Source: Candidatus Thorarchaeota archaeon
GTDB taxonomy: Archaea; Asgardarchaeota; Thorarchaeia; Thorarchaeales; Thorarchaeaceae
Direction of reading: 5' to 3'
DNA: 64,000 nucleotides
Assembly (NCBI GenBank): GCA_016933575.1
Contig: JAFGAR010000146.1
Coordinates: 50,130-114,129 of the forward strand
Made by a program: the position numbers and the translations under genes. Below, in pieces: positions 9,528-55,699 of the stretch (positions are counted from its first letter, which is position 1; each line of letters starts with the position of its first letter). Below the pieces are notes generated by a model that saw nothing but the letters and a program-made list of their open reading frames with translations, made no database searches and was not told the DNA's origin.

Positions 9528-10094
9528 ATGTCACGATTCTTTAAGCGCAAGAAATCAGAAGAAGAAAAAACAGAAACAGAGAAGGTAGAGTCCACAGAGG
9601 ATGCTCCAACTGGGACTGAAACCACTGAAGAGGAAGTTCATGAAGCTGAAGGTGCAGAGGCTGAAATTGAAGCAACACCTACAGGTCGACAGGCAACTAT
9701 TCCTTATCATTCAACAATTCAAGAGCGTCTAATGTACATGTTCAATGATTCGCATATGGGCGCAGGAATTGAAGGGACCGATGAATTCTACATCGAGTTC
9801 ATGGCCATGGGTGAACGTTTCTGGATTGGAAAAGCTCCCCTTGGAGACATTGCGATGAAGACGGGTGCAATGACCGAACAAGACGCACATGTTCGAATGT
9901 CGAACGATGTTGTTGCAGACCTGCTCTCAGCTGCAACGTTCTCAGAGTTCTCAAAGATTTATCTCCAGTACTACAAAAATGCTGAGGCTGGTAAGTTCAT
10001 CAAGATTGAGGTACGAAAGCCAATAACAGATCTGAATAGACGGGGATACGCCCGAGTACCAGTCATGAAGCTTCTAATTGGTTCTGCCAGATAG
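9528..10094 (+). CDS. Hypothetical protein: basic N-terminal tip, acidic linker, possible SCP2-like domain
   Basis: AGGAG RBS; MSRFFKRKK then a Glu-rich linker; C-terminal beta-beta-beta-alpha pattern reminiscent of SCP2. Confidence 0.6.
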   Translation: MSRFFKRKKSEEEKTETEKVESTEDAPTGTETTEEEVHEAEGAEAEIEATPTGRQATIPYHSTIQERLMYMFNDSHMGAGIEGTDEFYIEFMAMGERFWIGKAPLGDIAMKTGAMTEQDAHVRMSNDVVADLLSAATFSEFSKIYLQYYKNAEAGKFIKIEVRKPITDLNRRGYARVPVMKLLIGSAR

Positions 10095-10177
10095 TATGCA
10101 GATAAAGACCCACTCTGTCCTCTAGTAATAGTTATAATCAGGACTTTGGCAGTTAGAGGCATTCAGGTGGGATATGA

Positions 10178-10861
10178 TTGGATAATATAGAAACACCAGT
10201 TGTCATTATCAATCTGAAGACGTACTCACAAGCTACCGGCGAGAAGGCAGTCCTGATGGCTCAGGCTTGCGAGAGGGTCTCAAATGAATATGATGTTCCA
10301 ATAGTTGTAGCACCACAAATGCCAGATCTATATCGTGTTGCTAAGGCTGTTGAGATACCTGTGTTTTCGCAGCATATGGACCCTGGGGAACCTGGACGTT
10401 TTACTGGGCATGTTTTGGGTGAAGCACTTGTCGAATCTGGATGTGCTGGAACCCTTCTCAATCACTCTGAGCATAGAATGCAATTAGCAGATATTGAAGA
10501 AGCGATTCAAATTGCACATAAACTCCATCTCTATTCTGTAGTGTGCACAAACAACATTCAGGTAAGTGTTGCTGCAGCATGCATGAGACCTTGGTCAGTT
10601 GCTGTGGAACCTCCAGAATTGATAGGGTCTGGAATATCTGTTTCTCAAGCTCAGCCTGAGATCATCTCTGGTACAGTGAAAAAGATACGGGCAGTTAACA
10701 AGGACGTAGTGATACTCTGTGGTGCAGGTATCAGCAATGGTGAAGACGTTACTTCAGCTATAAAACTCGGTGCACAGGGAGTCCTGCTTGCCTCTGCAGT
10801 TGCCAAATCACCAAAGCCAGAATCTGTTCTTGCTGATCTCGTAGGTCCCTTGAGCAAATAG
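10178..10861 (+). CDS. tpiA: Triosephosphate isomerase (archaeal type)
   Basis: INLKTY, LLNHSE, AVEPPELIGSG, LCGAGI, GVLLAS. Confidence 0.96.
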   Translation: MDNIETPVVIINLKTYSQATGEKAVLMAQACERVSNEYDVPIVVAPQMPDLYRVAKAVEIPVFSQHMDPGEPGRFTGHVLGEALVESGCAGTLLNHSEHRMQLADIEEAIQIAHKLHLYSVVCTNNIQVSVAAACMRPWSVAVEPPELIGSGISVSQAQPEIISGTVKKIRAVNKDVVILCGAGISNGEDVTSAIKLGAQGVLLASAVAKSPKPESVLADLVGPLSK

Positions 10862-39301: not shown

Positions 39302-39395
39302 AACAATGAAGACATCACGGTAACTAATGAATGACTCGGAGCTATTTGTGTAATGGGAAGTGCTTATCTATGGTATTCAATCATTAAAAGTGTGG

Positions 39396-43382: not shown

Positions 43383-44246
43383 TTACTGTCGTGCTCCGCA
43401 ATAGGGGCATACTCTATTGCTCTTCCTGATATTTCGACCACATGAAAAACAGAACATCTGTTCCTGATTATCCTCTCTTGCATCATCAAGGAAGGGGCTT
43501 AGCTCTCCTTGGGCGAATAGAGCTCCAATTCCATCGACAGACTCATCCCGTTGAATGTTACAAACACTACAACTAAGGTCGTCCTTTGTTGGAACTGCAC
43601 CTTGTAAATCTGCATAGATATCCCTGCTCTCTCGATCTTCTCTCTCCTGGTTCTGAGGTGGATATCTATCATCACGACTCTGAGGCCAATTAGTGAGTCT
43701 CCCATCAAATGGTTCCTCTCTTTTATCCATACTTCTACCTAACGATTCAAAGTCACGCCGGTAATCATCGGAACCATACCCATAATCTACAGCTGGTCTA
43801 TTGGCTATTCGTTCACGTGAAGTCTGAGTGTCCCACTGGGAGTCCTCTGTACCAATCCCACGAGCAGTTTCAACAAATCTGAAATGGGCATCTCTCTTCA
43901 GACTCTCGTATTCCTCTGGTGTAAGACCCAGAACCTCAAGAGCACGGTCTCTCTCGGCACACCTTTTTGATAGTGGGCAGCAATAGGATAAGCTTCCGTG
44001 GCAGAGGGAAGCCATCGCTCGATCTTGACGTGACTTGAAGATAGGTGTAATTCGTTTACTACCCAATACAATCGAGTCTCCCACAGATCGGAGTTCAGCA
44101 TACCCACTCTGAGCAAGAGCTTCGATTAGTTCTCTTGCAGGATATGCTCTACCTTCAATTACGATATGTCCTTCTGTCTTATCGAGTCTAACAGGTCTCT
44201 CCGTAGCCTTATCCCCTTCGTAGGAAGAATATCTCGTCTTTGCCAC
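43383..44246 (-). CDS. Protein with a methanogenesis-marker-9-like Cys motif and C-terminal zinc ribbon
   Basis: CHGSLSYCC..SK.C..RD.AL..LGLTPEEY..LK; C-terminal CFSCG......CPYCG. Confidence 0.65.
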   Translation of the reverse strand: MAKTRYSSYEGDKATERPVRLDKTEGHIVIEGRAYPARELIEALAQSGYAELRSVGDSIVLGSKRITPIFKSRQDRAMASLCHGSLSYCCPLSKRCAERDRALEVLGLTPEEYESLKRDAHFRFVETARGIGTEDSQWDTQTSRERIANRPAVDYGYGSDDYRRDFESLGRSMDKREEPFDGRLTNWPQSRDDRYPPQNQEREDRESRDIYADLQGAVPTKDDLSCSVCNIQRDESVDGIGALFAQGELSPFLDDAREDNQEQMFCFSCGRNIRKSNRVCPYCGARQ

Positions 44247-44399
44247 CTCTGTGTAGAATTGCTGTCATATGTGCATGACCTCCAAACAATACAATGGTAT
44301 GTATTACCTCGGGAAGTATGGATTCGGGATACTTTAATACTCATTAGCATTCTACTCAAGACAGAATTGGGACAGTGGTTCCAAGGAGGACAAATAACA

Positions 44400-44771
44400 A
44401 TGGGTTGTAAAGCTGAAGGCGCTGCTCAAGGTTACACTATCCTTGGTGGTATCGTACTCATACTCTCTGCACTGCAAAGAATTATCAACAACATGAATTC
44501 ACCTGGACCTGGCACTGTTGAAGGTATCATGCAAATTGTCCTAGGTATTGTTCTACTGGTCGTAGTCTTATTGGCATTTGATGCATGTGGTTTTGTCTAT
44601 TGGAAACTGCGACGTTCTGGTGCTCTACTTGCGTTATTTGGATTCATAGCTATCTTGATAGTTTCATGGCCTGGTATCACATTAGACATTCTTGGATGGT
44701 TACAGAGTCTTGATACACTGGCAGGATTCATGATACTAATCGCTGGTTTACTGCTTCTAGTAAGCAAATAG
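44400..44771 (+). CDS. Small 4-TM membrane protein
   Basis: GGAGG RBS before ATG 44400; hydrophobic helices. Confidence 0.75.
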   Translation: MGCKAEGAAQGYTILGGIVLILSALQRIINNMNSPGPGTVEGIMQIVLGIVLLVVVLLAFDACGFVYWKLRRSGALLALFGFIAILIVSWPGITLDILGWLQSLDTLAGFMILIAGLLLLVSK

Positions 44772-46209: not shown

Positions 46210-46260
46210 AAAAAAAGAGAAGATGCTCAACACTTTGCAAGTGCTGAGCACTTATTCTCT
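46210..46260 (-). terminator. Imperfect hairpin plus U-tract between convergent genes
   Basis: TGCTCAACACTT-TGC-AAGTGCTGAGCA stem; the A-run at 46210-46216 gives poly-U on the minus strand. Confidence 0.5.
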
Positions 46261-46588
46261 ATTTGAATAGCAGTAAAATCGCGCCAATGATGACTAGTGC
46301 GCCGCCAAGCCCGCTAGCAAAGAGGTACATGAGAATACCCATAATGAGTATAATCAACCATTTGTTGCTAAACTCCAAGGCTTTGATCTTGATAGTACCA
46401 CTGTTCACTAGTGCAATTAGTGAAAATAGAATTCCAAGAATTCCTGTTATTAGACCACCCAATCCGAAACTCACATAGGGTAGGAAGGCAAGATAAGGTA
46501 ATCCCAATATAGTCAGGATACCTTCAATCAAACCAACAATACCACCGATGAGAATCAATAGGTCTCCAATTTTATTCAGATCTGACAT
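46259..46588 (-). CDS. Small Gly-rich 4-TM membrane protein
   Basis: AGGAG RBS; MSDLNKIGDLLILIGGIV...GALVIIGAILLLFK. Confidence 0.75.
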   Translation of the reverse strand: MSDLNKIGDLLILIGGIVGLIEGILTILGLPYLAFLPYVSFGLGGLITGILGILFSLIALVNSGTIKIKALEFSNKWLIILIMGILMYLFASGLGGALVIIGAILLLFK

Positions 46589-46918
46589 TATTTCAATACT
46601 CTCCTTTTTCTTGAGAAATTGATTCCTAATCAAACCATATATTGGTGCCTTAGAGATGTACGCAATAATTAGATTGTTATCAAGTAATTGCTTCGTGCAT
46701 ATCGCAGGCGTTGTTTATTGGTGGTTGATAAGAATCGTAGAAGACCAACGTTGCGCTTCTATATACATATATCGCAAAAAATGGTTTTCCAACGACGTTT
46801 GCCGTTTTTTATGATTTTAACGTTCTATCCTTTAAACTCAAACTCATGCAGTGGAAACGGCGAGCTTATAATCTCCATTCTTCATTGGTTGGTCAAATAG
46901 TTTGGAGTCTTCTGAATC

Positions 46919-48268
46919 ATGGTGCGTCCGATATCGAATGATACTAGTTCTGATATCCACCAAGAGAATGATGCTCCTCTGGAATTCATTGGTGATATTG
47001 ATTCATCACTTGAGATACCTGATGGTGCTGATATCCTCATTGTCAGTAAGGATCAATCCTATCTGACTCATGGTATTCACAAATTTCCAGCGAAGTTCTT
47101 CCCAGAATTGCCGCGTTATCTAATACAAAGATATTCTGAAGTCAATGATACAATCTTAGACCCTATGTGTGGAAGTGGCACTACTATTCTTGAAGCTGCA
47201 TTGTGTAGAAGGAAAAGTATCGGTATTGATATCGATTCTATTGCTCGTCTTATTACTCACGTTAAGACAACACCTATTGACCCAGCAATCCTTGAGAATA
47301 TAATTACCTCCTTGACCCAACAAATCCAGAAATATTCATTGAGTAGTGAGTATCATCCAGAAATTCCTGTTTTTAATTATCGAGATAATTGGTTCAGGCC
47401 TCATGTTCTGAGCGAACTCTGTATAATCCGGGACTGTATAGAATCACTTCCCGAGGTTCATGATGTCTATTCGGTCCATGAGTGGTCAGACATTCGTGAT
47501 TTTTTTCGGATTGCCATGTCCTCTATAATCCGTGATGTCTCCAATGCTGATCCTCATTGCACAAGAACCGTGCTCCGAAAGAAGGTAATCAAGAAGATAG
47601 ATCCTGGTGATACAATCTCTAAGTTCCTAGTTGCTCTATTCGAACAAGCTAAAGCAATGAAGGATCTATGGTCCGTATACTCCTCGATGAAGAACTGGGA
47701 GGTTTCAATACCTGAAGGAACTGCTACAAACACTGGACTTACTGATGCATCTGTTGATCTTGTTGTTACCTCACCCCCTTACATAAACGCAGTCGACTAT
47801 CCCCGGACACATCAATTAGAGATGTATTGGTTGGGTTTTCTTGGCGATGAATCTCTCTCTACAGTCAAGAGAAAGTACATTGGCACTGAGACCGTCTACA
47901 AGCGGGAATACAGCGAGCTTAGTGTATCCGGTCTAGATTCTCTTGATCCTGTTCTTAAAGAGATCTTTAAACAAGATCCGCGTCGATCATTTATCACGTA
48001 CATGTTCTTCAGAGATATGGAAACCCAGCTTCGAGAAACAATGAGAGTCTTAAAGCCTGGCGGAAGGTATTGTATTGCGATTGGAAGTAATCTCATCAGA
48101 GGAGTTCAAGTCAAGAGCCATGAGATACTCTCCGAGATATCCACAGTAAATGTTGGCTTTGAATTGGAACGAACCTTCTTCTCAAAACTGATTCGTCACT
48201 TTATTCGAATCCCTCGTAAAGAGCGAATGCTTGGTGAATGGATACTGATTCTGAAAAAACCATCTTAA
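46919..48268 (+). CDS. Solitary DNA amino-methyltransferase (N4-cytosine-type motif)
   Basis: HKFPAKF, DPMCGSGTT (SAM binding) before TSPPY (catalytic), RVLKPGG. Confidence 0.85.
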   Translation: MVRPISNDTSSDIHQENDAPLEFIGDIDSSLEIPDGADILIVSKDQSYLTHGIHKFPAKFFPELPRYLIQRYSEVNDTILDPMCGSGTTILEAALCRRKSIGIDIDSIARLITHVKTTPIDPAILENIITSLTQQIQKYSLSSEYHPEIPVFNYRDNWFRPHVLSELCIIRDCIESLPEVHDVYSVHEWSDIRDFFRIAMSSIIRDVSNADPHCTRTVLRKKVIKKIDPGDTISKFLVALFEQAKAMKDLWSVYSSMKNWEVSIPEGTATNTGLTDASVDLVVTSPPYINAVDYPRTHQLEMYWLGFLGDESLSTVKRKYIGTETVYKREYSELSVSGLDSLDPVLKEIFKQDPRRSFITYMFFRDMETQLRETMRVLKPGGRYCIAIGSNLIRGVQVKSHEILSEISTVNVGFELERTFFSKLIRHFIRIPRKERMLGEWILILKKPS

Positions 48269-48338
48269 GCACTGCAATGCCAAGGCTTATCAGTGGATAC
48301 GCTCCACCAACGCAAAAACAAATGGAGGTAAAAAACAC

Positions 48339-48597
48339 ATGGCAATAATCTATAGGTGGGATCACGTTTGCCAGACGCTCGTTTCTATCACTACCTCCTT
48401 CTGCGAAATTCCTCTACGTGCTTCTTAAGAGTAGGCGCCGGATGACCAGGCAAGACTTGATAAGCACAACATATCTGCCTCCCAGAACAGTCAATTATGG
48501 CCTTAGTCGGCTTAAGGCATTAGGACTTATCAGAGAAGCAGAGCATCACGAGGATGCGCGGGAGCGGGTCTACGAGCTAGTTCAGGCGCCAATGTGA
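48339..48597 (+). pseudogene. Frameshifted winged-helix (MarR-like, LPPSAK-type) regulator, not in the ORF track
   Basis: GGAGGT RBS and ATG at 48339 in one frame; the +1 frame (48349-48597) reads SIGGITFARRSFLSLPPSAKFLYVLLKSRRRMTRQDLISTTYLPPRTVNYGLSRLKALGLIREAEHHEDARERVYELVQAPM*. Confidence 0.75.
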
Positions 48598-48754
48598 TTT
48601 CAAGGACTCAAACAACCTTCAGACACAAGTGAATGCATATACCAAGATTTGAATCTGGTCACTATCAAGGTAAAGAGTTATATCAATTCCAGCATGATGT
48701 CCTTTGTCTTCACCATAGAGTGAAGATAATCGTGAAAAATATTGGAGGAATTGA

Positions 48755-49183
48755 ATGACGTACCAGATTCCACTAGAGCTTATCGTAGATGATATTCCGA
48801 TAAACTCTGTTGTGGGCAGAAATAAAAAGGAAAACCGGACAGCTGCAGCCGCAGCACCGCTTTTGCTTCTAATGCTACCATTTGCAGTTGGATTCCTTTG
48901 GTATGGTATAGGTGTTATGGGACCGACTATGTCCGTAATGCCATCAACAGGAATTGCGCCAAGTAGTGGTGAGTTCATAGTATTTGTCGCTGTATATGGT
49001 CGCTTACCTAACATTCAGGATTGGATAGCAATACTGGTAGCTGCTGGAATAGCGCCGTTCATTGCAATAGGAATGGCCTGGGCCTTGGTCAAACTAGGTA
49101 TCATAGGCATGGCTGTGCTTGAAGGATTCCTTAGTGCAACAGGTATAGGCATAGCTGTAGCGGCAGCAATTGTAGCCGCGTAA
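48755..49183 (+). CDS. Putative circular-bacteriocin-like precursor peptide
   Basis: GGAGG RBS; leader with a basic patch and hydrophobic helix; about 69-aa Ala/Gly/Ile-rich C-terminal part ending IVAA; followed by M48 and SpoIIM genes. Confidence 0.6.
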   Translation: MTYQIPLELIVDDIPINSVVGRNKKENRTAAAAAPLLLLMLPFAVGFLWYGIGVMGPTMSVMPSTGIAPSSGEFIVFVAVYGRLPNIQDWIAILVAAGIAPFIAIGMAWALVKLGIIGMAVLEGFLSATGIGIAVAAAIVAA

Positions 49184-49201
49184 GAACAGTTCAATTTCGA
49201 C

Positions 49202-49220
49202 GGGGCGTTTTTTAAGCCCC
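49202..49220 (+). terminator. Short hairpin between precursor and processing genes
   Basis: GGGGC-GTTTTTTAA-GCCCC, 18 nt after the precursor stop. Confidence 0.4.
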
Positions 49221-49261
49221 TCCCTCCAAAGTACAAGATATGTGAGAATGGATGAAAAAAA

Positions 49262-50326
49262 ATGTCAAATTTTGAACTTGTAAAAAATGGGCTCAGTATT
49301 ACTAGTCGTCGTCAACGCTTTTTCCTATCAGTGGTTTCTATTGGTGCAGGAGCTATCCTAATTCCTCTCTCTTACATATGGATTATCCAGCCGCTTGAAA
49401 TAGGACTAATAGCGCCGCTATTTACTTTCAGTATTTTGGTGTTGATTCAACTTAGTGTCATAAAAGCAAATCATACACTTGAAATTGAAACAAGGGCTGT
49501 TGACGCGAGTTTTGGTGAGTTTCTTCGTTTTTCATTTCCTAATGTAATCTTCTACAATCTATTGTTTCTTTCAGTATCTATCGTGGTTGTATTAATTGAC
49601 AACATAAGCGAAAATATACTATTACTCGGAATTGGAGGCAATGCCCTCATTATCTCTTTACTTGCTCTAATGATCAACTGGCCTGGAGGCACTCTTTTAC
49701 CAATCCAAGGGTTTCGAGAATTGGATCCAGAGAAATATCCTAAAATTATGAGTGTCCTTGAACGATCAAATCTTGAGATTCATTTGATTGGATTTCTTCC
49801 ACTCAGAAAAATAAAAGTCATCAATGCATATCAATGGGGATCTAAGAAGAATGCTGTGATAGCTATTTCGGACTACCTTGAACAGATTTTGACTGAGGAA
49901 GAAATTGCTGCAGTGGTTGCCCATGAACTAGGACATATCAAGAATCACCATTTTTCCAAGATGATTATTACTCTCTCAATCTCGCCATTGATTCTAATCA
50001 ATTTCTATTGCTTGTATTCTATTTTTGACATCTATCAGTACTTGAATGAAGTACAGATGTTGTTACTCTTAGCAATTCTTGGATTTCTTGCATTAGGTGT
50101 TCCACTAACAGTAATACCATGGATATCTAGGCGGCGGGAAGTGCAAGCAGACGAATACGCTGCTTGTCTGGTGGGCAGAGAGATTATTGCATCAGCACTC
50201 AGAAAACTAGTAGATAATGAGGTAGTGTTTTGGGATGTTGACAAACGAATTGAATTTCTTCTTAGTCATCCTAGTATTAGCAAACGTGTAACCACAATAG
50301 AATATTCTGATTCTGGGGAAAAGTAG
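49262..50326 (+). CDS. M48 (HtpX/Ste24-like) membrane zinc metalloprotease with extra N-terminal TM helices
   Basis: INAY, EEIAAVVAHELGH, REVQADEYA, SHPS...RV. Confidence 0.9.
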   Translation: MSNFELVKNGLSITSRRQRFFLSVVSIGAGAILIPLSYIWIIQPLEIGLIAPLFTFSILVLIQLSVIKANHTLEIETRAVDASFGEFLRFSFPNVIFYNLLFLSVSIVVVLIDNISENILLLGIGGNALIISLLALMINWPGGTLLPIQGFRELDPEKYPKIMSVLERSNLEIHLIGFLPLRKIKVINAYQWGSKKNAVIAISDYLEQILTEEEIAAVVAHELGHIKNHHFSKMIITLSISPLILINFYCLYSIFDIYQYLNEVQMLLLLAILGFLALGVPLTVIPWISRRREVQADEYAACLVGREIIASALRKLVDNEVVFWDVDKRIEFLLSHPSISKRVTTIEYSDSGEK

Positions 50327-50328
50327 AG

Positions 50329-51456
50329 ATGACTCGGAAAAAACCACAAAAAACTCCAAGGCATACAAGTATCGTTGAAACATCCGATTCAACTGAACTC
50401 TCAGTTGAAGCAGCATCTCCCGGAACAAGATTTGTAGCTGGAATGATCGATTTCTTGATAGTGGTGTGCTGCTCTACCCTAATTGCAGCATTACTGAGTA
50501 TAAACCCAATTTTCTTTCAAATTGCCATATTCTATTTTCTTGATGTCGGTGGGATTCTGACACTTCTACTAAGCGCTACAGGTCTTCTAGGTATGCTTTT
50601 TCTATTCTTTTTCTCCTTTGTTTATTTCACTCTAGAGGGTATTTTTGGTCTATCTGTTGGCAAGTATTTCTTCAGTCTCAGGATTGCAGGCGAACGGAAA
50701 TGGGAAAATATACTACTCAGATCATTTATCAAATCAATACCGCCTGTTAGTCTAATTGACTTTCTCTTTGTATTCAAGAAATTGAAGTACACTCAGCGAT
50801 ATTCCGATTCTTTTCTCGCGCTCGGTATTGCCAAACTAAAATTCGAATCTAAAAAATCGAAGCTTTTTCTAAATGCGGAAGATACACCATATATTGTATC
50901 TGGGTTTATCATGTTCTTTCTACCACTGATTGTTTACGTTTTATACAACACATTATTTTCACAATTACCTCCCGCAATCTTACCTCCAGATCCTGAATCT
51001 GCCTTTCCATATTCTCCCAGTATCTCTTTCTTACTACAGATTTTCATTAATAATTTCTATCTTGCTTATACTTACTATGTATTTGGAGGATTGCTTCTTA
51101 GTTTTCCAATGACCATGCAAGTTTTCTTTCAGGGCTTTACAAGCGGCATGATGATATCAGGTATTCTCATGTCATATCCCTCTTTCCTATTGTTTGGCAT
51201 CATTCCTCACCTTCTCTTTGAGGGTCTTGGATTTGCATTTCTTATCGCTACTGGTTTGATTCTGACAGAGACTCTGATGGATTTGTTCTCTCGATACAGA
51301 AAAGGCAAGAGTCTTAGCTCAAACAGATCATTCTTAGGAACCCAACTGATTCGAGTTATCAAGCTCTTCTTAGTAGGTGTGTTGATACTTTTCATAGGTT
51401 CTTTAATTGAGGTCTACATTACTCCCTACATTTTACTCAATTTCTATTTCTATTGA
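50329..51456 (+). CDS. RDD domain fused to a SpoIIM/DUF95 membrane domain
   Basis: RDD: RFVAGMID, G.SVGKYFF.LRI, LLRS, QR..D. SpoIIM: IFINN, GIIPHLLFE, SLIEVYITP. Confidence 0.85.
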   Translation: MTRKKPQKTPRHTSIVETSDSTELSVEAASPGTRFVAGMIDFLIVVCCSTLIAALLSINPIFFQIAIFYFLDVGGILTLLLSATGLLGMLFLFFFSFVYFTLEGIFGLSVGKYFFSLRIAGERKWENILLRSFIKSIPPVSLIDFLFVFKKLKYTQRYSDSFLALGIAKLKFESKKSKLFLNAEDTPYIVSGFIMFFLPLIVYVLYNTLFSQLPPAILPPDPESAFPYSPSISFLLQIFINNFYLAYTYYVFGGLLLSFPMTMQVFFQGFTSGMMISGILMSYPSFLLFGIIPHLLFEGLGFAFLIATGLILTETLMDLFSRYRKGKSLSSNRSFLGTQLIRVIKLFLVGVLILFIGSLIEVYITPYILLNFYFY

Positions 51457-51527
51457 AATTTATGATTTCCAAAAGCCTCATAATGGACACGCCCCCGAAT
51501 CAATTCAATCTAATTGAGGAATTTGAG

Positions 51528-52886
51528 ATGGACTATTACAAATCCGCTGGCGTTGAACCAATTGGAAATGATCAACGTACACATTACAGTAACCAAGTGA
51601 CCAAAGATATCATTGGAAAAGACATCGTACTTATCGGTTGGACACACATATTACGAGATAAGGGTAAAATAAAATTCCTAATTCTCAGGGATGAACATGG
51701 TACAGTCCAGATTGCAATCCCTCAAGCTAAAGTGCCAGAGGATGTTTTTGAAACATCAGCACAGCTAAAACCTGAAACAGCAATTGCTGTGCATGGGAAA
51801 GTTGTAGCAACAAATCAACTTCCTTCTGGAGCTGAAGTTCTTCCAACTAAGATTCGTATTCTAAATACTGCAGAACGGCTCCCAATCGATATTGTGGAGG
51901 GGAAGGTAGACATTGAACTTGACACCCGCCTCAATTATAGAGTTCTCGACCTTCGAAAACCGTCAATTAATGCCATCTTCAGGATTCAACACAATCTTGT
52001 CAGATTTGCCAGAGAATATCTTGAGAAGAATGACTTTGTCGAGATACACACTCCAAAGATAGTAGCCGCTGCAACAGAGGGCGGCGCAAACCTGTTTGAA
52101 GTTCAGTACTTTGAGAAGAAGGCATACCTTGCACAGAGTCCTCAATTCTACAAGCAACTTATGCTCTTGGCTGGATTTGGCCGTGTCTTCGAGATTGCTC
52201 CTGTATTTCGAGCAGAGAAACACAATACTAGGCGCCACGTCAATGAGTACACCTCTTTTGATTTTGAGATGGCTTGGATCAGTGGTGTCGAGGATGTTAT
52301 GAGGATGGAAGAGCGTATGTTGAACCACTCGTTCAAGAAGACAAAGGAAGTGGCTGCATCAGAGCTAGAACTTCTTGGCATAGACCTCGTGGTTCCTAAG
52401 GTCCCATTCAAGAGAATCAAGTATGTAGAAGCCATTGATCTCTTGAACAATGCTGGTAAAGACTTGAAAATCAATGATGACCTTGACCCCGAAAGTGAAC
52501 AGATTCTAGGTCAAATCTTTCCCGAGAAGTTTGGAACTGATATGGTCTTTATTACTCACTATCCCCTAGAACTTAGACCCGCTTATACCATGCCCAGCAT
52601 GACCGATGAAGGAATGACTGAGAGTTTCGATCTCACCTATAAAGGAATGGAGATTACAACTGGCAGTCAACGAATTCACCTCTACGATTTACTTGTTGAG
52701 CGATTCAAAGCAAAAGGCTTCAACCCTGAGGACTTCACGTTCTATCTTGATCCTTTCAAGTATGGTGCGCCTCCTCATGGTGGACTTGGTCTTGGTGTTG
52801 AACGACTGACAATGCAGATTCTTGGCATAGACAATATCCGTGAGGCAACATTGCTACCACGAGATAGAGACCGCTTAACACCCTAG
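51528..52886 (+). CDS. aspS: Aspartyl-tRNA synthetase (archaeal type)
   Basis: OB domain GW...RD.G...F..LRD, TRLNYRVLDLR, LAQSPQFYKQ, FRAE, GAPPHGG.GLG.ER, PRD..RL.P; start at ATG 51528. Confidence 0.95.
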   Translation: MDYYKSAGVEPIGNDQRTHYSNQVTKDIIGKDIVLIGWTHILRDKGKIKFLILRDEHGTVQIAIPQAKVPEDVFETSAQLKPETAIAVHGKVVATNQLPSGAEVLPTKIRILNTAERLPIDIVEGKVDIELDTRLNYRVLDLRKPSINAIFRIQHNLVRFAREYLEKNDFVEIHTPKIVAAATEGGANLFEVQYFEKKAYLAQSPQFYKQLMLLAGFGRVFEIAPVFRAEKHNTRRHVNEYTSFDFEMAWISGVEDVMRMEERMLNHSFKKTKEVAASELELLGIDLVVPKVPFKRIKYVEAIDLLNNAGKDLKINDDLDPESEQILGQIFPEKFGTDMVFITHYPLELRPAYTMPSMTDEGMTESFDLTYKGMEITTGSQRIHLYDLLVERFKAKGFNPEDFTFYLDPFKYGAPPHGGLGLGVERLTMQILGIDNIREATLLPRDRDRLTP

Positions 52887-52982: not shown

Positions 52983-53741
52983 ATGCAGGAGCGACTTGAA
53001 ACAGAACTCTATGCATCTATTGCAACCCTTGATCAATTGAAAAAGATGTTTGACCTTGGTGCTATTGACAATAGGTCATTCCAGAGAGAATCTCAGGCAC
53101 TTCTCCAAGAAGTACATCATCATATTGATAGTCTAAAACGTGTGGGTCTGGATATTAGCAAATTCATTACTGGTGAACAGATTACCGAAGCTTTTCCCGA
53201 TGCCGCTGACTTGCTTAGACTACGAGAATACCCTTCTGTACGATCGCTTCATGGAATGTCTTCAGATCAATATTATGACTATATTGGACTAGCTATTCTA
53301 GATGTTGCCACAGAACATGCATCTAAGGGTCTCATGGGTCTTGCTGAGTTAATTGTTGAAGTTGTAAGGTGTTTACCTGAATTAAAGACAGTAACTTACA
53401 ACGATGTTATTGAGGCGGTGAACCGAGTTGCTGAACATGGTCTTCTTCCAGGCATTCGAACACTTCGTGGCGGGGTGAAGGTTGTTGAGCTAAGGCCTCT
53501 GGAGCTACGTCGTGATCAAGCAGATGTTGTAAATCTTGCCGCCTCACGTGGGCATATCTCTGTTGAAGAAGTAATGATGCAACTGAAATGGTCCGAGGAC
53601 CACGCAAGACAGGTCTTAGCAAGCCTTGTTGAAACTGGCATGGCTGTTGCAGACATTCGTTTCTCAACTGGTGGAAGGTACTACTTCCCTGGTCTTCGTT
53701 CAAGAGATACCGCTGAGCCTCATGGTACTGGTCCATACTAA
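52983..53741 (+). CDS. ESCRT-II Vps22/Vps36-like (EAP30) tandem winged-helix protein with N-terminal Vps28-like helical hairpin
   Basis: YY..IG..I, GL..L.EL, D...A, P.EL..D...V..LA...G..S......L.W...A...L..L...G....D, YYFP match EAP30. Confidence 0.85.
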   Translation: MQERLETELYASIATLDQLKKMFDLGAIDNRSFQRESQALLQEVHHHIDSLKRVGLDISKFITGEQITEAFPDAADLLRLREYPSVRSLHGMSSDQYYDYIGLAILDVATEHASKGLMGLAELIVEVVRCLPELKTVTYNDVIEAVNRVAEHGLLPGIRTLRGGVKVVELRPLELRRDQADVVNLAASRGHISVEEVMMQLKWSEDHARQVLASLVETGMAVADIRFSTGGRYYFPGLRSRDTAEPHGTGPY

Positions 53742-54466
53742 GTAACTACGATAATTGCACCCCTCTTCTTATCAACCCACTCGGCAAATCCCTTCTCTAC
53801 CATGAGTGCCAAGACAATATAGAGGTCCTTTTCTGGTAATTTAGCAAAACTCTCCTCTGATTCTTGGATCACTATTGATTTCACATCAAGTCTTAGTTTG
53901 CCATGCTTCAATGCCCACTCATACAAGTAATCTGCCCAATCCTCTAGAGGTCTCCAGTAGACTCTTAGTTGCCTCTTTCGTTTGTCCATCCATTCGGCTA
54001 CTTCTTTGTCGATAAGAATCTGTACTATTATCTTAAAGGAATCTACCTTGTTTCTAAGATCCTTGAATGGTGGCTCACTGATGAATACAGACAATGAGAG
54101 AATATGGACATCATTATGTTCTGCCCATTGAAGTATGAAGTCCGCCCACTCTTCTGCCCAGAGGATCTTATCCTCCTCCCTTGAGGGTATGCCATACATC
54201 CACTCGCTCTCGATTGGTCCTCCCCAGGAGGGCATCAAAATCTCAAATTCCGTTGTCACTTCTTGAAGAGTTTCCTCAACTACTTGAGGTTCGGAGCTTT
54301 GGATATCTCTTGTTTCAGTAGTTTCTTTTTTTTCTACAATGACTTCTGGAGAGTGGGTCTGTTCCATAGTAGTTACCTTCTCAGGTACATCCACAGACTC
54401 TGTTTCTAGTGGTTCCTGAGAGACCTCTTTTTTTGACTTCTCTCTCCTCTTCTCTTTCATTCCCAC
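53738..54466 (-). CDS. ESCRT-II Vps25-like protein with acidic N-terminal extension
   Basis: W...IL.W, AEW.DK.K....V.WR..E.WA..LY.W match Vps25. Confidence 0.85.
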   Translation of the reverse strand: MGMKEKRREKSKKEVSQEPLETESVDVPEKVTTMEQTHSPEVIVEKKETTETRDIQSSEPQVVEETLQEVTTEFEILMPSWGGPIESEWMYGIPSREEDKILWAEEWADFILQWAEHNDVHILSLSVFISEPPFKDLRNKVDSFKIIVQILIDKEVAEWMDKRKRQLRVYWRPLEDWADYLYEWALKHGKLRLDVKSIVIQESEESFAKLPEKDLYIVLALMVEKGFAEWVDKKRGAIIVVT

Positions 54467-54469
54467 TCT

Positions 54470-55699
54470 TTAGGAACCCTCCGCCCAGTCAATGTATCTT
54501 CTGACATCCTCTGGGGGAGTAGCAGGTCTGATATTCTCAATAGCACTCAAGAAGTCATCCCTTGACACAGGTCGGATGTCTAAAATCTCTCTCTCATCAT
54601 CCATTCTTCCAGAACGCTGCAGGTCTCTTATTGGTTCCATAGATGCCTCTCTACAGACGATACTGATATCTCTCCCACTGTACCCCTCTGTGAGATCTGC
54701 AAGTTCTTCATAATCGACAGCTGGCGAGACCTCAATCTCTTCCATATGTATTTCCAGTATTGCCGCTCGTGCGGCTTTATCTGGTAACGGTACATGTAAT
54801 TTCTTCTCGAATCTAGACCTGAGTGCAAAGTCAATCTCCCATGGAAGATTCGTTGCTCCAATCACTGTCACTCTCTCATTCTGATTACTAGCAAGTCCTT
54901 GAAGTTCAGTGAGCAACTGTGTCTTCATTCGTCTCTCCCCGCCAACATCATCCCCAGAACGTGATACACCTATAGAGTCTAGTTCGTCGATGAATATGAT
55001 TGCTGGCTGATTCTTTCGTGCAAGTTCAAAGAGATGCATGACGAGACGCTCAGACTCACCAAGCCATTTACTTACAATATTAGCTGCTGACACATTGAAA
55101 AATGTGGCATTCACTTCGGATGCAACAGCTTTGGCGATAAGGGTCTTTCCACAACCAGCTGGACCATAAAACAGGATTCCTCTCCATGGCTGTCTTGCTT
55201 TTCCTTTGAATAACTCTGGATGTTTCATTGGTGTAATAATAGCATCACTGATTGCCTGTTTTGCATCCTGTAGACCAGCAACTTCTGACATCTTGATATT
55301 TGGCCGTTCAGAGATGATAGTATCTGATATCATTTCTCGGAGACGTTTTGTATCTTCATCAACATCTTGGTCCACAGATGTTTTTTGTCCAACTGAAACT
55401 GATTCTGCAGGACCAAAATCCGCCTTGGGTGGTTCTGTAAGACCATCTATTGGTCCTGCAGTCTTCTTTTTAATTCCTGAGAGAAATCTCACTCGATCTA
55501 CGCATTCCTGTGCTCGGTCGAAGTAATGTTTTCTGATTGATGGCAGCGATGCCGAATTTGACAATTTGATCAGAATCTTACTTGCCTTAAGGTAGAGCTG
55601 ACAAGCCTCGTTCTTAATCCCTCTCTGATCAAGTTCAATTGCTCTATCAAGTAGGCTCTTGAGGCCTCTATCCAACCGGTCATTATCTGATCCAGCCAT
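54470..55699 (-). CDS. vps4: Vps4 AAA+ ATPase (MIT + AAA)
   Basis: MIT: RAIELD..G...EA..LY..A; ERPN.K...VAGL..AK, PWRGIL.YGP.GCGKT, SKWLGESE, FIDE, GATN.PW. Confidence 0.95.
   Translation of the reverse strand: MAGSDNDRLDRGLKSLLDRAIELDQRGIKNEACQLYLKASKILIKLSNSASLPSIRKHYFDRAQECVDRVRFLSGIKKKTAGPIDGLTEPPKADFGPAESVSVGQKTSVDQDVDEDTKRLREMISDTIISERPNIKMSEVAGLQDAKQAISDAIITPMKHPELFKGKARQPWRGILFYGPAGCGKTLIAKAVASEVNATFFNVSAANIVSKWLGESERLVMHLFELARKNQPAIIFIDELDSIGVSRSGDDVGGERRMKTQLLTELQGLASNQNERVTVIGATNLPWEIDFALRSRFEKKLHVPLPDKAARAAILEIHMEEIEVSPAVDYEELADLTEGYSGRDISIVCREASMEPIRDLQRSGRMDDEREILDIRPVSRDDFLSAIENIRPATPPEDVRRYIDWAEGS

Follow-up and report, generated by a model that had tools for sequence, protein, structure and literature searches.

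The question raised by this locus is whether a short open reading frame (ORF) in a Candidatus Thorarchaeota archaeon encodes the precursor of a processed, perhaps circular, hydrophobic peptide, or a small membrane protein that acts whole. The window, a stretch of 64,000 nucleotides of contig JAFGAR010000146.1, carries this ORF together with genes for a membrane metalloprotease of the M48 family and for a protein that ends in a SpoIIM (DUF95) domain; genes in such a partnership serve bacteria in the production of ring-shaped antimicrobial peptides. SpoIIM/DUF95 is treated as the class-defining gene of circular bacteriocin clusters (PMC13289728), and the only known peptide-related role of DUF95 is in the maturation of circular bacteriocins (PMC13289728, PMC13463998). 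DUF95/SpoIIM is the main suspect for the long-sought activity by which these peptides lose their leader and are closed into a ring, and mutants of circularin A and pumicyclin A point to a single enzyme for both cleavage and ligation, a part for which DUF95 has been proposed (PMC13463998). In archaea, homologues of SpoIIM are widespread and have been tied to membrane remodelling and lipoprotein biogenesis rather than to peptide maturation (PMC5898192, PMC12462473).

The small gene and the parts of its product

The ORF lies on the plus strand at 48755-49183 and encodes 142 amino acids (aa), with an ATG at 48755 and a stop codon at 49181-49183. Its parts, and the features around it, are as follows.

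About 48598 to 51465: three-gene insertion of 2.9 kb, relative to same-genus genomes in which the winged helix-turn-helix (wHTH) and aspartyl-tRNA synthetase (AspRS) genes adjoin
48744 to 48748, plus strand: Shine-Dalgarno-like GGAGG, 6 nt 5' of the ATG, from reading of the sequence
48755 to 48973, plus strand: putative leader, residues 1-73, from the sequence and a nine-sequence alignment
48974 to 49180, plus strand: putative 69-aa core, residues 74-142, from the alignment and composition
49202 to 49220, plus strand: GC stem-loop (GGGGC / GCCCC), its loop containing a T6 run, in the spacer that separates the small gene from M48
49262 to 50326, plus strand: M48 (HtpX-like) membrane metalloprotease, 354 aa (Pfam PF01435, E = 1e-25)
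50329 to 51456, plus strand: RDD and SpoIIM (DUF95) fusion membrane protein, 375 aa (Pfam PF06271 and PF01944)
52983 to 53741: ESCRT-II EAP30/Vps22-like gene (Pfam)
53738 to 54466: ESCRT-II Vps25-like gene (Pfam)

The ORF can be taken as a real gene rather than a chance reading frame, since eight relatives at 30-55% identity, with conserved neighbours, are present in other metagenomes and metagenome-assembled genomes (MAGs). A 49-kb Logan contig, assembled independently from what is probably the source run and possibly of the same sample, agrees with the window from 47800 to 52200 without differences.

An earlier note on this DNA had divided the product into a leader, made up of a basic RNKKENR patch, a hydrophobic helix and a Pro/Ser/Gly linker running to SSGE, and a 69-aa segment, and every one of these parts is present in the sequence. 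The leader begins with a conserved I-x-LE-L segment, followed by the basic patch (residues 22-28), a membrane helix at about residues 29-56 and a linker rich in Pro, Ser, Thr and Gly, with SSGE ending at residue 73. The core is rich in Ala and Gly and has a net charge of 0, a pI of 6.1 and a GRAVY of 1.75; its charged residues are exactly R83, D89, K113 and E123, in agreement with the four counted earlier, and residues 87-142 form a single unbroken hydrophobic stretch. With the basic patch preceding the helix, the positive-inside rule predicts an N-in, C-out orientation for the small protein.

A three-gene insertion among conserved genes

In three genomes of the same genus (G001, G024 and G020) the wHTH and AspRS genes that flank the three genes adjoin directly, with gene order conserved over the whole of the region compared, which runs from a gene of 956 aa at 39360 up to and including Vps4 (54470-55699), and the same junction is found in G002. 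The three genes are therefore a 2.9-kb insertion, which stands in place of a hairpin-containing spacer of 60-70 nt in the relatives. By Pfam it contains these three genes only, with no ABC and no Yip1 gene. The RDD-SpoIIM fusion was matched in none of 40 relatives, and a profile of the small-protein family found no match among 399 other genomes of the phylum. The small gene, the M48 gene and the RDD-SpoIIM gene are a rare, mobile cassette.

Several features of the flanks can be recorded beside the insertion itself. A contig of G020 (L007, G020:C68:1-1887) opens with an M48 fragment of 50% identity, followed by a 182-aa multi-pass membrane protein and no SpoIIM gene; the fragment may be a copy of the cassette cut by the end of the contig. 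The wHTH gene is ruled out as a regulator of the cassette, because a gene 86-90% identical to it is found in relatives that have no cassette, and the 59-aa wHTH is accordingly part of the core genome. This gene (48339-48597) has an unusual layout, with a ribosome-binding site and ATG in one frame (M-A-I-I...) and the wHTH domain in the +1 frame, where it lies behind a TAA and has no canonical start before a GTG at 48418. An identical two-frame layout occurs in the cassette-less G001 and G024 (L049, about 9985-10321; L051, about 9971-10313), so that a recent indel is not the explanation; the gene could contain a conserved frameshift or use a non-canonical start at ATA or ATC. On the other flank, the ORF listed for AspRS begins at a TTG at 51453 (window 51453-51530) and overlaps the SpoIIM stop. 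The AspRS of relatives aligns only from about residue 6-17, and a conserved box, TTTCCAAAAGCCTCA, lies upstream at 51466-51480, for which reasons the true start is probably the ATG of M-D-Y-Y-K near 51528. Further upstream of the cassette, two small multi-pass membrane proteins of no known family, of 124 aa (46259-46633, minus strand) and 201 aa (44166-44771, plus strand), are kept in same-genus relatives and hence belong to the core genome and not to the cassette.

A new protein family and a conserved motif

The small protein has no family in Pfam, NCBIfam, PHROGs (E <= 1) or PADLOC, and a word-index homologue search with the single sequence returned only the query itself. An exhaustive phmmer search of 1.8 billion representatives yielded seven true relatives, and two further ones came from a profile search and from a look-up of neighbouring genes, respectively. 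With a 78-aa fragment (one of the phmmer seven) left out, the final alignment has nine sequences including the query, and the eight relatives in it come from Asgard archaea, one Cuniculiplasma MAG (Thermoplasmatota) and metagenome contigs. A profile search of PDB sequences with the family gave chance-level rows only.

The alignment bears directly on where a leader might end and a core begin, and on whether the C-terminus is a true one. All nine members share the same C-terminal end column, and none extends beyond the -AA terminus of the query, an extension that the earlier note had named as contrary to its reading. The cut proposed there, near E73/F74, coincides with a conserved motif of small residues followed by G or S at P2, E, Q, N, M or H at P1 and F, L or Y at P1', and this linker motif (residues 70-74) is common to the Asgard and Thermoplasmatota members. 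Measured from that point, the part after the cut is 69 aa long in eight of the nine and 72 aa in the other, against 72-127 aa for the part before it. The core has A or G as its penultimate residue and A, I, G, Y or F as its last; in general terms P1 is polar or charged, P1' aromatic or hydrophobic, and the final residue hydrophobic. The C-terminus falls within a hydrophobic stretch and has no polar flank. Across the family the net charge of the core varies from -4 to +4 and its GRAVY from 1.0 to 1.75. Invariant positions are found on both sides of the proposed cut: N23 (in the basic patch) and A33 precede it, and P85, W90, G98, L111 and G115 follow it in the core. In mean pairwise identity the core (0.37) comes first, then the helix (0.34), the linker (0.29) and residues 1-28 (0.26), and the "leader" is conserved about as much as the core.

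The partner genes

The M48 gene begins 78 nt 3' of the small gene, and the RDD-SpoIIM gene starts 2 nt past the M48 stop. The M48 protein also has HtpX matches in NCBIfam, and in its alignment H221-E222-x-x-H225 and the third-ligand residue E293 are invariant; by the positive-inside rule its catalytic loop and C-terminal domain are predicted to be cytoplasmic. In the SpoIIM half of the fusion protein, two residues, E298 and E361, are identical in all members and a third, H294, is shared by six of the seven; the same rule predicts that these three residues lie towards the outer face of the membrane. The closest relative of the fusion protein is annotated as a Thorarchaeota MAG protein, which together with the ESCRT-II genes of the window marks the host as an Asgard archaeon; the metagenome is one of sediment.

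Linkage of the small gene to these partners is not equally strict for both. An orthologous RDD-SpoIIM gene, at 26-50% identity over its full length, adjoins the small gene in all eight homologue lineages. An intact M48 gene is adjacent in five (the window, L053, L028, L033 and L038/L039); in L026 the downstream ORF is cut by the end of the contig. The M48 lineages number five or six. Gene order varies, with the SpoIIM and M48 genes swapped in L032-L035 and the pair divergent in L038-L040, and in the two most divergent lineages, L036 and L041, the cassette consists of the small gene and SpoIIM alone, with 12 nt between them. On the contigs of the other lineages, some of them short, there is no other conserved neighbour and no recurring ABC ATPase or small extra membrane gene, and the loci examined hold no conserved fourth gene that might serve as a separate small immunity gene. 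It is a matter of speculation whether the leader or the RDD domain might act as an immunity factor.

In five of seven lineages a hairpin or T-run lies just after the small gene; in L053, L028, L026 and L033 it occupies the corresponding place and differs in sequence from that in the window. Such a stem-loop or T-run is consistent with, and hints at, a transcript for the precursor that is more abundant than that for the enzymes. Two metatranscriptomes of the same study hold next to none of the sampled words and are uninformative on expression. A complex prediction for RDD-SpoIIM with the small protein gave a score of 0.01, which in a run without controls speaks neither for nor against binding.

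Structure predictions

The AF2 model of the full 142-aa protein is poor (pLDDT 53) and was excluded from the structure searches. Residues 73-142 alone, modelled with the family alignment, are predicted as five short helices (pLDDT 76.9) at model positions 2-9, 15-25, 28-42, 45-55 and 59-69. The two-helix fold of a pilin or capsid protein, which the earlier note had named as an outcome contrary to its reading, is therefore not what the prediction gives. The likeness to known bacteriocin structures that it had looked for did not emerge either: Foldseek against the PDB returned no match for the core model, and VIA-align wide returned generic helical bundles and designed binders (best Z 4.9) and no bacteriocin structure. 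A search of viral structures (BFVD) gave nothing below E = 3.8, and a shape search of the ESM Atlas gave TM values of at most 0.44. Ranked by language-model similarity, the named Atlas clusters that come closest are the subgroup I circular-bacteriocin families PF09221 and PF16942; their scores of 0.76-0.81 fall within the chance range, and this similarity is a lead only.

Comparison with circular bacteriocins

With the circular bacteriocins as a class, the cassette has in common a small precursor of leader and core (the putative core being 69 aa, and 72 aa in one member) and a SpoIIM/DUF95 gene in the cluster. It has neither an ABC or ATP-binding gene nor a separate immunity gene; an ATP-binding protein or ABC transporter is present in all reported circular bacteriocin clusters, and an ABC transporter in each of those confirmed by experiment (PMC8534725, PMC7132975). 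In precursors with long leaders, a small residue at -2 mirrors the penultimate residue of the core, the residue at -1 is often charged, and the junction lies inside a hydrophobic helix (PMC13463998). The small-protein family fits these rules for long-leader precursors (PMC13463998).

The earlier note had placed the small protein near subgroup II, the group of gassericin A, butyrivibriocin AR10 and acidocin B (PF12173), and some likeness is evident in the weakly charged, Ala/Gly-rich hydrophobic core, the hydrophobic first residue, the small or hydrophobic last residue and the DUF95 partner. The subgroup II core, however, is about 58 aa and its leader 22-35 aa, whereas in the family described here the core measures 69 aa and the leader, which contains a membrane helix, 72-127 aa, and the cassette is without ABC or immunity genes and resides in an archaeal host. 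PF12173, PF09221 and PF16942 do not match the ORF at E <= 0.1, a six-frame search of the whole genome with PF12173 found nothing at E <= 10, and PF09221 and PF16942 likewise miss the ORF at that threshold. Membership in subgroup II is excluded, because there is no match to a circular-bacteriocin HMM, no ABC ATPase, and a leader about as conserved as the core. Of the broader circular-bacteriocin-like reading, the anatomy, the DUF95 and M48 partners and the motif at the cut have stood; subgroup II, an ABC ATPase and a match in sequence or structure have fallen away.

A closer parallel is offered by altitudin S, the ring of which has been proven by mass spectrometry and which is made from a 132-aa precursor with a 56-aa leader (bioRxiv 10.1101/2025.10.31.685828). 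Its cluster, of a type found in Bacillales and proposed as subgroup III, has an M48 gene adjoining the structural gene, and a SpoIIM gene (bioRxiv 10.1101/2025.10.31.685828). The precursors are similarly long (132 and 142 aa), as are the leaders (56 and 73 aa), both systems have M48 and SpoIIM, and both cores are predicted to form five helices. The cores differ, on a comparison by description only, in that those of the altitudin S type are of 75-82 aa, with a pI of 10.3-11, a charge of +7 to +13 and near-neutral hydropathy, and that of the cassette is 69 aa, with the pI, net charge and GRAVY given above (6.1, 0 and 1.75). Altitudin S clusters also carry Yip1 and ABC genes, which the cassette is without, and only in the cassette is the SpoIIM domain fused to RDD. 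Altitudin S is the nearest precedent for the combination of a long leader, M48 and SpoIIM, but has a strongly cationic core.

Other SpoIIM genes in the genus and the archaeal family

The genome that carries the cassette (G000) has two SpoIIM domains, one in the cassette and the other forming the last part of an ORF of some 900-950 aa. This second domain lies at G000:C38:19615-19932 (L058), and the large fusion ORF is conserved in 11 of the 12 same-genus genomes searched. The archaeal SpoIIM homologues of arCOG01994 have the Pfam domain PF01944 in common with the cassette protein; they are mostly stand-alone and widely conserved, whereas that of the cassette is an accessory second copy of rare occurrence, which is fused to RDD and linked with a small protein.

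Searches with a profile built from the cassette protein also brought up stand-alone SpoIIM genes in three genomes from the archaeal family to which the host belongs; on a small test set the profile scores stand-alone SpoIIMs at 37-60 bits and leaves the housekeeping copies of about 900 aa unscored. At three loci (L062:972-3433, L061:1021-3444 and L066:2-2058) the SpoIIM gene is followed by a Yip1 gene and then by a gene for a large membrane protein or an ABC ATPase, a layout that is of the canonical circular-bacteriocin type. A hydrophobic small protein of 117-127 aa with no Pfam match is encoded upstream of the SpoIIM gene at L061 and L062, and no small ORF was found 5' of that gene at L066. 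The SpoIIMs of these loci are the closest relatives found for the cassette SpoIIM domain (58-60 bits), and the L061 and L062 small proteins resemble that of the cassette in having an N-terminal basic patch and hydrophobic helix and an Ala/Gly-rich, hydrophobic C-terminal part. They differ from the cassette in their stand-alone SpoIIM, their Yip1 and ABC ATPase genes, and their want of M48 and RDD, and an hhalign comparison of the cassette family with the L061/L062-type small proteins found no homology (E = 0.36, over 12 leader columns).

A proposed maturation pathway and its competitors

The explanation preferred here, tentatively and with somewhat less than even confidence, is that the ORF specifies a precursor, anchored in the membrane, from which a hydrophobic peptide of a new family is processed, and that the cassette is a minimal archaeal maturation system of the circular-bacteriocin type that depends on DUF95 and is possibly cyclising. 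A relation of precursor and enzyme is favoured by the linkage of the genes, the behaviour of the cassette, the fixed termini and the cut-site pattern. In its favour can be counted an adjacent RDD-SpoIIM gene in all lineages, three genes that are present or absent as a unit, a second and dedicated SpoIIM copy distinct from the genus-wide housekeeping one, the constant length and common end of the core, the pattern of P2 and penultimate residue, the five-helix core and the altitudin S precedent. To be set against them are the lack of sequence similarity to circular-bacteriocin families or to the canonical-type Asgard precursors, the lack of a linked ABC ATPase or immunity gene, an evenly conserved leader with a full membrane helix, a core hydrophobic enough for two ordinary membrane helices, the lack of a structural match, and the published association of archaeal SpoIIMs with membrane remodelling and lipoprotein biogenesis (PMC5898192, PMC12462473).

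One plausible course of maturation can be drawn from the predicted topologies and the conserved residues. The basic patch and helix (residues 22-56) would act as an N-in signal-anchor, and the linker and 69-aa core would be exported by the general Sec/YidC route in place of the dedicated ABC exporter of bacteria; if the signal-anchor did engage the general pathway in this manner, an ABC pump would be unneeded. RDD-SpoIIM would then recognise the site of small, small and G/S residues followed by a polar-aromatic pair, and cut at or beside E73/F74, and it might go on to join F74 to A142 head to tail, for which the expected cyclic mass is 6963.4 Da. Closure of the ring, as a part of the DUF95-matured-precursor reading, is considered unlikely, if far from negligible. 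M48, with its active site facing the cytoplasm, could trim or clear the leader stub left in the membrane, a role that would be dispensable in the two lineages without M48. The released peptide would act on membranes, either as an antagonistic peptide or as some other membrane-active factor.

The most serious rival holds that no peptide is released at all, and that the product stays unprocessed, as a small integral protein that has three or four membrane segments and serves as a stoichiometric subunit, a regulator or a quality-control client of an RDD-SpoIIM/M48 complex, with a role for example in membrane remodelling or transport. It is given a minor but considerable probability, and is a serious rival because of the even conservation, the leader helix, the hydrophobicity, the absence of ABC and immunity genes and the absence of any match in sequence or fold. 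Conservation extends evenly along the whole protein, the first helix included, residues 87-142 are long enough for a hydrophobic helical hairpin, and no exporter or immunity gene is linked, all of which a resident membrane protein would explain. Archaeal SpoIIMs have generally been proposed to take part in membrane remodelling (PMC5898192), and M48/HtpX enzymes are quality-control proteases for membrane proteins. Harder to reconcile with an unprocessed subunit are the ends of all nine members, which lie at the same position inside a hydrophobic stretch without a polar flank, and the motif at residues 70-74, conserved from Asgard to Thermoplasmatota. The core alone is moreover predicted as five short helices, not two long ones, in most lineages a hairpin or T-run stands between the small gene and the genes for the enzymes, and a cassette that is rare and mobile would more typically serve an accessory or antagonistic function than encode a core membrane complex.

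Processing without any ligation is a third and rather improbable explanation, in which signal peptidase removes a Sec signal-anchor of 72-73 residues at S-S-G | E to leave a linear hydrophobic peptide, secreted or inserted in the membrane, with RDD-SpoIIM and M48 providing immunity or clearance of the leader. Small residues at -3 and -1 (S/x/G or S/x/S) in most members agree with such a site, the most divergent, P0008 and P0010, having Ile at -3, as do the basic n-region and hydrophobic h-region before it; Gln follows the G or S in four of the nine members and could form pyroglutamate, and the missing ABC exporter is accounted for. The hydrophobic helix, however, ends at least 16 residues before the site, a long distance for the c-region of a signal-peptidase substrate, and neither the strictly co-terminal hydrophobic C-end nor the obligate DUF95 partner (PMC13289728, PMC13463998) is explained by a linear product.

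The earlier note had also listed a pilin-like or viral-coat-like subunit among its alternatives. In its proposed sizes, with about 140 aa for the precursor and about 70 aa for a hydrophobic product, the small protein resembles the VP1 protein of fuselloviruses. A processed capsid protein of the spindle-virus type, which these sizes bring to mind, or a type IV pilin-like surface-filament subunit is nevertheless very improbable: a virus capsid is disfavoured by sequence and context, there being no PHROG match (E <= 1), no structural match in BFVD, no member of the family seen in virus-like contigs or virion proteomes, and a three-gene cassette flanked by conserved cellular genes here and at other loci with no integrase, capsid or ATPase gene nearby, and a type IV pilin with a class III signal peptide is ruled out by a cut site that has no basic residue at -2 and is followed by nine hydrophobic residues and then R-L-P-N, and by the absence of a prepilin peptidase gene nearby.

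Significance

Should the preferred reading hold in full, ring closure included, the cassette would be the first archaeal system for a head-to-tail cyclised peptide and the smallest known, comprising an anchored precursor, RDD-SpoIIM and an optional M48 with no ABC transporter; that this is so is, on balance, doubtful. Even if the small protein proves to be unprocessed, the locus still adds a mobile membrane module of three genes that had not been described before, and with it a new family of proteins. As a natural cassette of precursor and DUF95, with or without M48, it would make the question of the enzyme directly testable by reconstitution. If the reading is true, DUF95/SpoIIM would be isolated as the long-sought leader-cleaving and ring-closing enzyme in a system of two or three genes that is easily reconstituted, one of the unexplained archaeal SpoIIM paralogues and the RDD domain would each gain a first concrete role, and the circular peptide class would extend to the Archaea, in both Asgard and Thermoplasmatota.
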